Part shown: in pieces, positions 1 through 10,149 of the stretch | Numbering within the stretch: position 1 is the first letter of the stretch | Layout of the letters: every line of letters starts with the position of its first letter | From: a virus | Direction: 5' to 3' (one strand) | DNA length: 10,149 bases | Virus record (IMG/VR): IMGVR_UViG_3300009149_007517 | Translations under genes and position numbers: made by a program | The notes under the pieces: generated by a model | Database searches by the model: none | What the model saw: only the letters and a program-made list of their open reading frames with translations | What the model was told of the DNA's origin: nothing

Positions 1-20
1 CAATACCTTTATAATTCCAA

Positions 21-608
21 TTACTTTTTTTCATTTTTAAATATTTTATCTTCAATTAATTCACACATAATATGACCAATCATAATATGACTTTCTTGTA
101 TTCTTGGGGTATCTGTTGATGGTACATTAATAACATGATCAGAATATGTTTTTATTTTACCACCACTTTCACCACTAAATAATATAGTTGTCATATTTTT
201 CTCCTGAGCTATTTTAAATGCTCTAAGGATGTTTTCCGAGTTGCCTGATGTTGAGAATCCAATTAAAATATCACCACCTTTACCCATAGCTTTAACTAAT
301 CTTGCATATATTTCATCATATCCATAATCATTTGCTACAGCAGTAACATAAGATGTGTTTACATGTAATGCTTCTGCAAATAAAGGATCTCTATCAAAAT
401 AAAATCTACCTGATAATTCAGCTGCTATATGTTGAGCATCAGCTGCACTACCACCATTTCCACATAATAATACTTTACAATCAGCATTGAAACAATCAAT
501 TATTTCATATGTTGAACTTTCAATAGTTGATATTAATTTAGGATCATTATATATTAACTCTTTAACATATATTGAACTAGATATAATTTCTTTAATTCTT
601 TCTCTCAT
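21..608 (-). CDS. gmhA: D-sedoheptulose-7-phosphate isomerase (GmhA-family SIS-domain protein; DiaA is the close paralogous family)
   Basis: 195-aa ORF. The motif LLCGNGGSAADAQHIAAELSGRF closely matches GmhA (E. coli GmhA: [23 protein letters not shown]). The catalytic-type Glu in AAEL is kept; DiaA has AASM here. STSGNSENI and the C-terminal RIQESHIMIGH also match GmhA/DiaA (RIQEIHIKVIH / RIQEMHMLTVN). Length fits the family (E. coli GmhA 192 aa, DiaA 196 aa). Stop is TAA at 21-23. Confidence 0.8.
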   Translation of the reverse strand: MRERIKEIISSSIYVKELIYNDPKLISTIESSTYEIIDCFNADCKVLLCGNGGSAADAQHIAAELSGRFYFDRDPLFAEALHVNTSYVTAVANDYGYDEIYARLVKAMGKGGDILIGFSTSGNSENILRAFKIAQEKNMTTILFSGESGGKIKTYSDHVINVPSTDTPRIQESHIMIGHIMCELIEDKIFKNEKK

Positions 609-925
609 TTTAAATTATTAATTTTTTTTACTCTTTCTTTATTTAAATAGTAATAATGAAGTTTTCTTGCATATTGTTTAAAATTCTCAATTGGTGCCCA
701 TTTATCTAATTCATATTTAAATTGTGTATATGTTTTTTGATTTAGATAATGTCTATCTGAAGTAGACCAAAAATTACCATCTTTAATAAAATGTGTAGTT
801 TCTTCGTGAATAAAAGTAACCCTATCAACCCAATAATAAGATCTACGTGCAGTTTTAGACATATCAGTTTTTAAATACCAATATCTTTCACCATGAATAT
901 TGAGCCAATATTTATTCTCTTTCAT
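605..925 (-). CDS. hypothetical protein, Trp/Tyr/His-rich, 106 aa
   Basis: ORF with an ATGA 4-nt overlap onto the gmhA start. The upstream ORF also overlaps it by 1 nt, so it sits in a tight co-directional block. I recognise no domain. The composition (many W, Y, H) is unusual. Confidence 0.45.
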   Translation of the reverse strand: MKENKYWLNIHGERYWYLKTDMSKTARRSYYWVDRVTFIHEETTHFIKDGNFWSTSDRHYLNQKTYTQFKYELDKWAPIENFKQYARKLHYYYLNKERVKKINNLK

Positions 926-1443
926 TATTTGTATATACTTTTTAACTTATTAAGTTTTCTTCTTCTTTTATCTTTAATATCATCAACATCAAATTTATTA
1001 ATAATATCTTTAATAGAATAATTTCTATAAGTATTTGAAATATAGAAATGCCCAGAATAACTATCAACCTCTATTTTATATATTTCACCTTTTTGAAAAT
1101 CATTATAATTATATTTAGCTTTAATATCATAAGTATCAGTAGTATCCATGAAATCAAGTTTAGACATAAGTTTATTATATATTCTAATGTGTCTGATATA
1201 ATTATAAATCATAGGAGATATTACTATCATATCAATAACAAAAGTATAAATAGATGATTCATAATTATATGTATATTTATCATTTACAAAAATCATTATA
1301 ATTTCTGGTAAAAACATACCAACTGGAACACCAAAAAAACAAAATGATTTAATAATAGTTAGTTGATTTTTTAATGTTAACTTTCTATCTAAAAAATCAA
1401 ATATTTTAAAAAACAATAAATTAATATAATTAAAAATTCTCAT
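925..1443 (-). CDS. small integral membrane protein (2-3 predicted TM helices), 172 aa
   Basis: Hydrophobic stretches LLFFKIFDFL, FCFFGVPVGMFLPEIIMIFV and IYTFVIDMIVISPMIY in the N-terminal half. The stop overlaps the next ORF start by 1 nt at 925. It lies 8 nt downstream of ORF 1452-1808. Confidence 0.5.
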   Translation of the reverse strand: MRIFNYINLLFFKIFDFLDRKLTLKNQLTIIKSFCFFGVPVGMFLPEIIMIFVNDKYTYNYESSIYTFVIDMIVISPMIYNYIRHIRIYNKLMSKLDFMDTTDTYDIKAKYNYNDFQKGEIYKIEVDSYSGHFYISNTYRNYSIKDIINKFDVDDIKDKRRRKLNKLKSIYK

Positions 1444-1451
1444 TATTATTT

Positions 1452-1808
1452 TTATGTTTTATTAATTACTTCTTTAGTATATAATTCTCTTAATTCTTTA
1501 GCTTTTAGTTCTTTAATATCTTTTCCATTAAAGTGCTGTTTTAATATTTTTGTTTCTTGGGTTTTTGTTAATTCTTTTAACCATTTTCTAACATCAGAAA
1601 TTTTAACAACATCTTTTTTTACTGTAGGTTTAAAATATGGGACAAATTCTGTTATTTTTAATATTTTTAAACATTTAACACAATAGTTTGTTTTATAATG
1701 TTCATTAGGTACTCTTGCCGTAAATATTTCTTTTCCTGTAAAACTTCCAATACATTCAGAACAAATATGTTCATCTTTATATTTTTTAACTTTTTTGTTA
1801 TATTTCAT
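1452..1808 (-). CDS. zinc-ribbon protein (CxxC-x23-CxxC), 118 aa, Lys-rich C-terminus
   Basis: HICSECIGSFTGKEIF...NYCVKCLK gives four Cys with zinc-ribbon spacing. The C-terminal half is basic and likely helical. First gene of a four-gene minus-strand block. Confidence 0.55.
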   Translation of the reverse strand: MKYNKKVKKYKDEHICSECIGSFTGKEIFTARVPNEHYKTNYCVKCLKILKITEFVPYFKPTVKKDVVKISDVRKWLKELTKTQETKILKQHFNGKDIKELKAKELRELYTKEVINKT

Positions 1809-8754: not shown

Positions 8755-9727
8755 ATTTTGGGCAAAATTTCCATGAATTTTTTCTCAAACGATAACCACA
8801 TTCGCTACAATATTGTCTGATTTCTGTTACTCCACGATTTTTTGCAGAATGTGGCATAATTTGATATTCTACAGTATAGAAAGCGTTTGGTTGAAATTGA
8901 ACATTAACACTTTTTAAACTTTGATTAGATATATCACCTCTTTCAACTCTACCTGTTTCTACTTTTGAATAATCAACTTCTGATGTGAAAATACCAGGGG
9001 ATTTAAAAGTACTATCAAAACTTGATATGTTTGTTATATCACCTAAAGATTGTGTCATAAATACACTACTTGTTGTATTTTCATTAGAAAACGTATCTAA
9101 TGTAGCTTGATATGGAATATTAACATTAGTTGTGGTAGAAATATTCACACCTCTTGTTGTTCCAGCTTGCCCAGGAACACCTAAATTACCAGTTGACCCT
9201 TGTGGTCCACTATTTCCTTTTACACCAGCATTATACGTTCTACTATTAGAATTGTAATTTGATGTGTTACTAAAAGATATATTATTGTTCCAATCATCAT
9301 ATCTTTTTGGTTTAGGTGGAAAATCATAATTAACATCAATTTCTTTATGATAATTATTATACCAATTTGATTCTTTGAAAAAATTAAAACTAATTTTTCC
9401 ATTTTTTGCAATGGCTTCTCTTGCTTCTTTACTATCCCCATTGATAGAATAAGTTTCAAATACCATTTTTCTTTGTTCGTCTAAGAAACGATCCAAATTT
9501 AAATCTTGTCCAGGATTTAGGATTAAATATCCGTCACCTTTTTTTTCTCCGTTAAAACATACCTCTACCCCTAATTTTTCTTGTAAAGGGTTGAAAAATC
9601 TTAACTCAAAGTTATCACCATTGTTCAAATAAACAATGTTATCCTGATAAACTTTTAACTCATTACGATTCGATGTAATTTGAACAGACGGATTTCTGTC
9701 CAACATTTTGTTGTGTGTCATATACAT
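8735..9727 (-). CDS. protein with short collagen-like Gly-X-Y run and C-terminal zinc ribbon, 330 aa
   Basis: GVKGNSGPQGSTGNLGVPGQAGTTRG (8 consecutive G-X-Y triplets, nt about 9149-9226). C-terminal CSECGYRLRKNSWKFCPKCGEKI (CxxC-x11-CxxC). The middle is N/S/T-rich low complexity. Its 3' end overlaps the annotated vWA start by 20 nt. Confidence 0.6.
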   Translation of the reverse strand: MYMTHNKMLDRNPSVQITSNRNELKVYQDNIVYLNNGDNFELRFFNPLQEKLGVEVCFNGEKKGDGYLILNPGQDLNLDRFLDEQRKMVFETYSINGDSKEAREAIAKNGKISFNFFKESNWYNNYHKEIDVNYDFPPKPKRYDDWNNNISFSNTSNYNSNSRTYNAGVKGNSGPQGSTGNLGVPGQAGTTRGVNISTTTNVNIPYQATLDTFSNENTTSSVFMTQSLGDITNISSFDSTFKSPGIFTSEVDYSKVETGRVERGDISNQSLKSVNVQFQPNAFYTVEYQIMPHSAKNRGVTEIRQYCSECGYRLRKNSWKFCPKCGEKIQ

Positions 9728-9926
9728 TTTTTATTTTTTGTTTTTGACTTGCTAACTTATTTATTGCTTATTAAAACAATTCCAAAGCCTAATGACTCTA
9801 AACTAACAAAATCCAAAAATGTGTCCGTACAGAATACAAACTAATATTATATAGTAAAAAATGTTGCTCTTGTTAGTTATTTTTAAAATATTTTTTGTAT
9901 TTTTGTATATTATACCTATTAATATT
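9728..9926. promoter_or_regulatory. 199-bp divergent intergenic region (promoters for 9727(-) and 9927(+))
   Basis: Plus strand has TATTTTTG (TAnnTTTG) about 21 nt upstream of the 9927 ATG, the same spacing as the motif before the 1808 gene. Plus strand also has TTGACT ... TTATTAAA (weak sigma70-like), and a patch less AT-rich than typical intergenic sequence. Confidence 0.3.
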
Positions 9927-10058
9927 ATGAAAAAAGAATTAAAAAATATCACTGAAGAAGAAATTAAAATTATTTGTGAACTTTATGGTGAACCATATAT
10001 AGACTTTATGGCTGGCAAATGGGAAGATTCTAATTATGGGTTAGTAATAGTTAAATAA
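9927..10058 (+). CDS. hypothetical 43-aa protein (MKKELKNITEEEIKIICELYGEPYIDFMAGKWEDSNYGLVIVK)
   Basis: The track ORF 9861-10058 begins with a hydrophobic low-complexity leader. The internal Met at 9927 follows the TAnnTTTG-like motif and gives a compact acidic peptide. An imperfect hairpin plus T-run follows. Weak. Confidence 0.3.
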   Translation: MKKELKNITEEEIKIICELYGEPYIDFMAGKWEDSNYGLVIVK

Positions 10059-10110
10059 AATCACATCAAATACTATCAAGTGGTAATATTTGATATGATT
10101 TTACGTTTTT
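10058..10110. terminator. imperfect inverted repeat (aaatcacatcaaata ... tatttgatatgattt, 14/15 pairs) followed by a T-run
   Basis: Arms 10058-10072 and 10087-10101, with a 14-nt loop. The 3' side is followed by ttacgttttttc. Located right after the 10056-10058 TAA stop. Confidence 0.4.
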
Positions 10111-10149
10111 TCTTCATTCTCTGTGGGTCTAATGACTTACACTCCAGAA

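Follow-up and report, generated by a model that had tools for sequence, protein, structure and literature searches.

Host-type expression signals place an AT-rich, MVP-bearing viral fragment very probably in a huge tailed phage of Bacteroidota

The IMG/VR virus record IMGVR_UViG_3300009149_007517 is a stretch of 10,149 bp with about 25% GC (hereafter the window, which matches a JGI contig of 10,149 bp) that encodes an 805-aa protein related to the major vault protein (MVP). An initial annotation, made from the letters of the window, had leaned towards a Bacteroidota-type bacterium lacking Shine-Dalgarno (SD) sequences, or its phage, rather than towards a mimivirus-type giant virus. Our analysis agreed with this lean and favoured the phage: the window is very probably an accessory stretch of a huge tailed phage of Bacteroidota that uses expression signals of the host type. 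We link it to Bacteroidota because the top upstream motif of its lineage is the -7 box of Bacteroidota promoters, because SD use is 1%, and because its own contig carries a receptor resembling those of Marinilabiliales. We prefer a phage to a bacterium because of the 56 mostly small open reading frames (ORFs) of this contig, the PHROG- and T4-type genes, the viral relatives and the homologs present in the phage genome LR756500. The host would most likely be a member of Bacteroidia of the Marinilabiliales/Bacteroidales type, and the accessory region is probably expressed early.

Exact look-ups with two of its proteins placed the window on an ENA contig of 32,156 bp (ERZ27249621 k141_213413), with copies in JGI 3300024262 and in a Logan assembly; the MVP protein had no match in such a look-up. 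Syntenic MVP regions were found on contigs of 501,337 bp (L002), 531,023 bp (L222, from ENA) and 221,902 bp (L006), and the IMG/VR viral contigs among the syntenic relatives reach 501 kb.

The consensus recognised by the primary sigma factor of Bacteroidota comprises TTTG at -33 and TANNTTTG at -7 with G at -5, together with A-rich leaders in which the SD sequence is absent; the -7 element has been refined to TAHHTTTG, G being disfavoured at the first variable position (PMC6847099). We searched for TAnnTTTG in 116 upstream regions of at least 40 nt from seven non-redundant loci and in 1000 dinucleotide shuffles. The motif ended 15-35 nt before the ATG in 16 of the 116 regions, versus 2.12 +/- 1.45 in the shuffles (maximum 8). 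These 16 matches were spread over 14 of 70 independent gene families, and all of them came from the lineage of the window, none from LR756500. The distance between box and ATG in the lineage was 18-31 nt, with a median of about 24. The promoter motif discovery that the initial annotation had suggested, run on lineage regions, returned TAnnTTTG as the top de novo upstream motif: in an unbiased 8-mer scan at -70..-9 of 92 upstream regions, TATCTTTG ranked first (7 occurrences versus 0.15, z 13.7) and TATATTTG second (10 versus 0.65 expected, z 11.6).

The lineage boxes shared the consensus TAT[A/C]TTTG followed by T, with G at the first variable position in 2 of 18 boxes and at the second in none of the 18. 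At exactly the 20-nt spacer, 5 of 18 boxes had TTG, and 6 of 18 had G in that column; the -33 element is weak in F. johnsoniae too (PMC6847099). The orthologs of the gene at 1452-1808 in L004 and L009 keep the box, as TATCTTTG or TATATTTG, 23-25 nt upstream. The 531-kb contig L222, which lay outside the discovery set, carried TATCTTTG in 2 of 14 regions, at 21 and 23 nt, one of the two with TTTG 20 nt upstream. From the box-to-ATG distance, leaders would be about 20 nt long, to be compared with published median 5' untranslated regions of 24 nt in F. psychrophilum and 32 nt in B. thetaiotaomicron (PMC9723704). The elements thus resemble Bacteroidota sigma-ABfr promoters in the -7 box itself, in the near absence of G at both variable positions, in the TTTG that some of the boxes have 20 nt upstream, in fitting leader lengths and in A-rich, SD-less leaders. 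They differ in being phage-borne, in their narrower consensus TAT[A/C]TTTGT and in their presence in about one sixth of the regions.

The boxes might instead be a by-product of T-rich composition or of shared ancestry, in a huge phage whose host belongs to another SD-poor lineage. This would agree with the observations that the motif is unenriched in the window as a whole, that some matches are orthologous and that LR756500 is SD-less without a motif peak. We regard it as very improbable: the shuffles never reached 16, the matches belong to 14 independent families, their position is confined to 18-31 nt with TTTG at a fixed 20-nt spacer, and the receptor described below provides independent evidence on the host. 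LR756500 moreover is just as AT-rich and can be taken as a negative control, since its whole genome (24% GC) exhibited no peak (5 versus 3.6); either its host differs or it uses transcription signals of its own. T4 had no TAnnTTTG peak either, 139 kb of LR756501 gave 5 versus 1.1, and the phage B40-8 of Bacteroides fragilis, used as a positive control, had matches at 26-44 nt.

Over the whole window TAnnTTTG was not enriched (20 copies versus 21.4 +/- 4.6 in shuffles), and the window alone could therefore not decide the matter. Position was more telling, as about 0.13 matches are expected at 15-35 nt across the seven upstream regions of the window (from 2.12 per 116 regions) and two were observed, for which we estimate a Poisson P of about 0.008. 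By position and consensus, the sites at 1833 and 9898 are credible promoters (Table 1), although both lack TTTG 20 nt upstream, and the box at 1833..1840 (-) is the best-supported predicted promoter of the window. The third site, at 5373, is probably a chance match and not a promoter, because its distance of 86 nt to the ATG falls outside the 15-35 nt peak and because its first variable position is a G. The initial annotation had pointed to these same three sites, expecting fewer than one by chance in the seven regions. Its distances needed little change: the box before 1808 lies at 24 nt instead of 21-22, the one before 9927 at 21 nt as announced, and the one before 5467 at 86 nt where about 87 had been given.

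No convincing second upstream motif emerged from the 8-mer scan or from a test of TATATAAAA. The latter is found exactly 25 nt before the ATGs of 4459 (MVP) and 5329, with copies at 4485-4493 (-) and 5355-5363 (-). We did not adopt it as a second promoter, given its 8 copies in the window and the lack of positional clustering in relatives; it may be a coincidence or a weak phage-specific promoter. A scan with the sigma-70 consensus yielded 91 sites versus 92.8 expected.

Translation signals pointed in the same direction as the boxes. None of the 15 window starts paired with the anti-SD sequence (best duplex energies from -3.3 to +1.9 kcal/mol), in line with the nine starts inspected in the initial annotation, and the SD sequence was not common elsewhere in the lineage, an outcome that would have spoken for a bacterium outside Bacteroidota. 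An SD core, defined as GGAG, GAGG or AGGA at -18..-4, preceded 3 of 225 lineage genes (1%), versus 10% for intragenic control stretches, 57% for the genes of T4 and 39-57% for those of the GC-richer MVP-bearing viral contigs L010 and L012; the proportion was 2-3% in LR756500 and LR756501 (3% in LR756500). The A content of the leaders reached 70-72% at -11 and -10 and 59-65% at -14..-12, on a background that is itself A-rich, and was not raised at -3 (54%) or -6 (42%). As far as these sequence features go, the start regions of the lineage match the SD-less initiation known from Bacteroidetes (PMC6847099). Depletion of ATG near starts, which we also considered as a signal, was uninformative, since ORF calling itself eliminates ATGs that lie upstream in frame, and T4 was equally depleted.

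The independent evidence on the host came from the window's own contig, which encodes outside the window (L218 10001-13267) a 1088-aa TonB-dependent receptor of the CarboxypepD_reg type. This receptor was 74-77% identical to Marinilabiliales/Bacteroidales proteins encoded on bacterial contigs of 6 Mb; with proteins named Sunxiuqinia and Geofilum, two Marinilabiliales, the identity was 70-75%. Small phage-like ORFs lie on either side of its gene, which has about 29% GC, and the GC content of the contig (about 25%) is uniform through this gene. Host-derived outer-membrane receptor genes (SusC) are known from megaphages (PMC9723777). Searches of the GenBank phages by tblastn with the receptor and with a 435-aa ORFan returned nothing informative. 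By the receptor gene lies what may be a heptose/glycosylation set, composed of a GmhA-like protein, an HldE-like adenylyltransferase/kinase, an epimerase, a methyltransferase and a GT4 glycosyltransferase (window 21-608; L218 8444-9652 and 13877-15783). Taken together, the receptor and this possible nucleotide-heptose/glycosylation set suggest that the host envelope may be remodelled during infection.

The gene content was that of a phage. On the window's own contig, gene calling gave 56 genes over 31.4 kb (about 1.8 genes/kb), most of them encoding 50-200 aa without a Pfam match, and the contig also encodes T4_Y16D, NUDIX, RNA ligase, Pth2, glycosyltransferases and HNH endonucleases. Comparison with PHROG matched 28 families among 41 proteins of the own contig and 57 families among 107 proteins of relatives. 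In the relatives, the flanks of the MVP gene contain T4 gp30.3, endonuclease VII, an endolysin-type glucosaminidase, CHAP, GIY-YIG/NUMOD endonucleases and TnpB, and neighbouring genes include Hsp70/DnaJ, ankyrin, TnpB and glycosyltransferases. The lineage thus shares T4_Y16D, gp30.3, endonuclease VII, RNA ligase and Seg/HNH-type homing endonucleases with T4-like phages (Straboviridae and T4-superfamily relatives). It differs from T4 itself, where SD sequences precede 57% of starts and promoters are of the sigma-70 or gp55 type.

Such a contig could also belong to a Bacteroidota cellular genome or to a non-viral element (a genomic island, a megaplasmid or a reduced AT-rich symbiont), which would account for expression signals of the host type, for the envelope and sugar-nucleotide genes (GmhA-like, HldE-like, epimerase, GT4 and TonB-dependent receptor) and for the lack of any virion gene seen on it. 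We consider this origin improbable in view of the gene density and the majority of ORFans of 50-200 aa, the 28 PHROG families among 41 proteins, the homing endonucleases and the T4-specific families. The GC content does not change at the receptor gene, scans of the window and of its own contig found no tRNA, rRNA or Rfam elements, and the relatives are listed as viral in IMG/VR. Related contigs measure 0.2-0.53 Mb at the largest, and contigs of more than 1 Mb are absent among those that carry the best 120 MVP relatives.

We give almost no credence to a nucleocytoplasmic large DNA virus (NCLDV) of mimivirus type with a eukaryotic host, of which the AT-richness, the ORFans, the MVP and the hairpins at 3' ends would be traits. 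The initial annotation had held that AT content and ORFan density would still fit an NCLDV. The 25% GC and the dense ORFans are indeed compatible with one; MVP is chiefly known as a eukaryotic protein, mimivirus too has hairpins where its genes end, and Hsp70/DnaJ, ankyrin, TnpB and glycosyltransferases are also found in giant viruses. However, the top upstream motif is the Bacteroidota -7 box, and the mimivirus-type early promoter AAAATTGA was found 3 times versus 4.25 expected, always inside genes (2815, 6168 and 7655), in agreement with its reported lack in intergenic regions. The TonB-dependent receptor on the contig, the peptidoglycan hydrolases in relatives and the T4-family accessory genes also oppose an NCLDV; a Gram-negative outer-membrane receptor and peptidoglycan hydrolases have no evident use for a eukaryotic virus. 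The MVP is 14-17% identical to eukaryotic MVP and 50-80% to proteins from phage-size contigs. Finally, none of the NCLDV core genes (double-jelly-roll major capsid protein, A32, PolB, VLTF3) was among the Pfam families listed for 211 lineage and related proteins or in the gene tables of the contigs; the Pfam scans covered the best 25 families each on partial genomes (about 200 kb of lineage sequence), so that this absence is weak evidence. The fit to an NCLDV thus found no support.

The nearest deposited genomes, LR756500 and LR756501, relate the lineage to the megaphages of Bacteroidota (Mahaphage including Lak, PMC7162821). Huge Mahaphage genomes are predicted to infect Bacteroidetes, and the 735-kb genome is that Mahaphage (PMC7162821). 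Common features are relatives of about 0.5 Mb, host-derived receptor genes (PMC9723777) and a Bacteroidetes host predicted for the largest; the window's lineage, LR756500 and LR756501 are all AT-rich, with SD sequences at 1-3% of starts in all three and an MVP-like gene 50-52% identical. In LR756500 (462 kb), both the MVP and the Zn-ribbon/vWA pair described below have homologs, and phmmer with T4 queries recovered from this genome TerL, portal, tail sheath and prohead protease; such T4-like structural genes were seen in LR756500 only, not in the window's lineage. It further differs by the lack of synteny around MVP, in addition to the missing TAnnTTTG peak. In LR756500 we also noticed that the T4-like TerL is split over three ORFs (L025 3332-4144, 4236-6122 and 7249-7824) and that 9-11 of its 98 ORFs above 330 aa match each of four homing-/HNH-endonuclease PHROGs, which suggests a possible interruption by introns or inteins.

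Several observations weigh against placing the window in a Bacteroidota phage with host-type signals. The box is present in only about 17% of the upstream regions (about one in six), and no canonical -7 box precedes the MVP gene or the 5329, 5467 and 9727 units. The sigma-ABfr-like elements are predicted from sequence. The nearest published phage, LR756500, has the SD-less starts without the TAnnTTTG peak, and its link to the window is partial, only about 20 of its ORFs having homologs in some 200 kb of sequence from the lineage. The receptor gene may stem from an older transfer and would then not reveal which host the phage has now. Furthermore, neither the own 31.4 kb nor the flanks of +/-10 kb around the MVP in relatives yielded a gene for terminase, portal or capsid, and four portal-based scans of IMG/VR (queried with the LR756500 portal, two portal alignments and a portal from the window's own sample, L104) retrieved no MVP-bearing contig. 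The L104 portal was rejected as the lineage's own, L104 falling in an abundant ordinary T4-like group and probably being a different phage. The search for hallmark genes of both kinds that the initial annotation had proposed thus yielded neither NCLDV core genes nor phage hallmarks on the lineage. Since no hallmark gene was retrieved, we infer the phage identity from gene content and relatives, and the phage would be a virion-forming one.

The MVP homology reported by the initial annotation was upheld. The 805-aa protein matched Pfam MVP_shoulder (1.7e-27, 96 bits, cut-off 25) and Vault_3 (5.3e-10, 39.7 bits, cut-off 28.8), both above threshold, and matched an MVP of the PDB by phmmer (E 2.5e-13). 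Its AF2 model has a mean pLDDT of 59.8, rising to about 85 in the shoulder and in a helix of about 145 residues, and exhibits a predicted MVP-like architecture of beta-repeats, shoulder and this long helix. The 12 best Foldseek matches of the model were all vault MVP (E from 8e-20 to 3e-15) over nearly the full length, with 14-17% identity to eukaryotic MVP over the structural alignment. Syntenic IMG/VR contigs encode proteins 72-80% identical. Among GenBank phages, matches at 50-52% were restricted to LR756500 (462 kb), with 52% for its copy, and LR756501/3 (735 kb). At E <= 1e-10 the family comprised 6531 homologs, of which the best 120 were 52-100% identical and located on contigs no longer than 531 kb (130-531 kb in many cases). 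The low identity to eukaryotic proteins and the location of these best 120 homologs point to an old, established gene family of huge phages and prokaryotes, not to a recent eukaryotic acquisition, which departs from the earlier proposal of horizontally acquired, eukaryote-like cargo.

According to a preprint, two gut-phage MVPs group with bacterial homologs (10.1101/2023.11.10.566534). These proteins have, like the one described here, about 800 aa with MVP repeats, a shoulder and a long cap-helix. They are about 23% identical to human MVP, whereas ours is 14-17% identical to eukaryotic MVP; they come from two human-gut Caudoviricetes and group with Firmicutes phages, whereas ours lie on environmental contigs of huge-phage size with Bacteroidota-type signals; and the family is far more numerous here, with its 6531 homologs, than in that preprint. 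Vault proteins are unmentioned in the recent surveys of huge phages and the review of jumbo phages consulted here.

Two neighbouring genes, one for a Zn-ribbon protein and one for a vWA-like protein, recur as a conserved pair (window; L023 30717-32154; L004 4031-5546; L222 1479-3021). No more than 8 kb separates this pair from the MVP gene in the window, L004 and L222, and about 100 kb in LR756500; in L010, a vWA homolog (2259-2846) is at most 3 kb away from MVP. The vaults of eukaryotes bind a partner that contains vWA, and by analogy a functional link between MVP and the vWA/Zn-ribbon pair is conceivable. It is a long shot that the MVP-like gene, as a conserved component of widespread huge phages, builds a vault-like cage in Bacteroidota cells, maybe together with the vWA and Zn-ribbon proteins. 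If true, phages would be making a compartment or cargo container of their own, loosely comparable to the phage nucleus, and the deep history of vaults would lie partly in phages.

The collagen-like protein of the initial annotation, which is this Zn-ribbon protein, was overstated. The linker of the 8735-9727 product contains 8 G-X-Y triplets and scores 16.4 bits with Pfam Collagen (cut-off 27.2). The G-X-Y run is shorter in the L004 ortholog and absent from the LR756500 homolog, and the linker is the least conserved part of the protein among orthologs. The ENA copy (L019 481-1515) is identical except for a 16-aa indel located just before the run.

The window contains 15 plausible genes grouped in five strand blocks (Table 1). 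Its co-directional junctions measure -4, -1, +8, +82, -4, -1, +6, +2 and +16 nt (the last one -20 with a GTG start), that is, 7 of 9 are of 8 nt or less or overlapping, mostly as ATGA or TAATG. The operon-like packing described earlier is thus real, with 7 of 9 junctions in our gene list in place of 7 of 10. The 31.4-kb own contig is similarly packed, with 32 of 48 co-directional junctions of 8 nt or less, 21 of them overlapping.

Table 1. Predicted genes, operons, promoter boxes and terminators in the 10,149-bp window.
Feature	Position	Strand	Remarks
GmhA-like SIS-domain protein (D-sedoheptulose 7-phosphate isomerase-like)	21..608	-	Pfam SIS_2 5.1e-21; phrog_14703 2.7e-41
106-aa ORF, no family match, operon member	605..925	-	L004 ortholog 52% identical
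172-aa ORF, operon member	925..1443	-	L001/L009 orthologs 33% identical
Cys-rich 118-aa ORF, first gene of the leftward four-gene operon 1808->21	1452..1808	-	orthologs in L004, L009, L002
Putative Bacteroidota-type -7 promoter box TATATTTG	1833..1840	-	24 nt between its G and ATG 1808
43-aa CxxC...CxxC ORF	1879..2010	+	gene call in public assemblies; 3' end inside terminator hairpin
Bidirectional intrinsic-terminator-like hairpin, U-tracts on both strands	1987..2021	both	fold -17.4 (+), -18.8 (-) kcal/mol
MVP-like gene, 805 aa	2042..4459	-	Pfam MVP_shoulder, Vault_3
Two overlapping ORFs (4925-5329, 4542-4928) upstream of MVP, same strand	4542..5329	-	82 nt gap, then MVP gene
TAGTTTTG site, probably a chance match	5373..5380	+	86 nt before ATG 5467
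Rightward four-gene operon: 5467-5802, 5802-7109, 7116-7511, 7514-8074	5467..8074	+	junctions -1, +6, +2 nt
Bidirectional terminator-like hairpin between convergent genes, GGGAAAAAUU/AAUUUUUCCC core, U-tracts	8073..8102	both	fold -12.8 (+), -13.3 (-) kcal/mol
vWA-like protein, 202 aa from ATG 8718	8110..8718	-	weak Pfam VWA matches; L222 ortholog annotated PF00092 VWA
330-aa protein: conserved N-terminal domain, variable low-complexity linker, C-terminal zinc ribbon	8735..9727	-	Pfam Zn_Ribbon_1 2.4e-5
Candidate -7 box TATTTTTG	9898..9905	+	21 nt before ATG 9927, within lineage-wide peak
Small ORF, 43 aa from ATG 9927, or 65 aa from 9861	9927..10058	+	public gene calls start at 9861

The GmhA-like gene is the last in-window member of the 1808->21 operon, its start overlapping the preceding stop (ATGA); with the NCBIfam gmhA model its product scored 198.5 bits, below the cut-off of 209. 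All four genes of the 5467..8074 operon are ORFans, apart from weak PHROG matches. The products of the divergent small ORFs 1452-1808 (-) and 1879-2010 (+) both have a zinc-finger-like CxxC...CxxC arrangement, and neither has a family match. At the right end, the -7 box and the A-rich leader favour ATG 9927 over 9861 as the more likely of two candidate starts; the 65-aa version (9861-10058, +) has a very hydrophobic, F/I/L-rich N-terminus.

Both convergent junctions of the window bear a hairpin with U-tracts on both strands. The fold of the hairpin at 1987-2021 has a z of about -7, none of 200 shuffles folding equally well, and it is the predicted end of both the MVP transcript (- strand) and the small + ORF. 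The hairpin at 8073-8102 has z of -3.0 (+) and -2.3 (-). A scan for GC-rich terminators gave a single match, inside a gene.

From these signals, the following scheme can be proposed for the expression of the region. Host RNA polymerase with the primary sigma factor of Bacteroidota would start at TAT[A/C]TTTG(T) boxes, often with TTTG 20 nt upstream; in the window, the box before 1808 (-) and probably the one before 9927 (+) would be used, giving leaders of about 20 nt. Translation would proceed without SD pairing from A-rich unstructured leaders, downstream cistrons would be reached via overlapping or abutting stop and start codons, and convergent units would be closed by the bidirectional hairpin-plus-U terminators. 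The units devoid of a box (5329->MVP, 5467->8074 and 9727->8110) presumably depend on weaker variants or on phage-specific promoters.

The biology at work would be of a known kind, the contig being classified as a fragment of a huge Bacteroidota phage and not of a giant eukaryotic virus. The lineage also provides two leads, a very large MVP-like family on contigs of huge-phage size and a receptor nearly identical to that of the host accompanied by heptose-pathway genes, and a promoter model for its early genes, TAT[A/C]TTTGT with TTTG 20 nt upstream. More generally, the expression signals of the host phylum, namely a TAnnTTTG box some 24 nt ahead of the ATG and an almost complete lack of SD sequences, would indicate the type of genome as well as the phylum of the host from about 10 kb devoid of hallmark genes, and may thus be useful for hallmark-free megaphage fragments in metagenomes.

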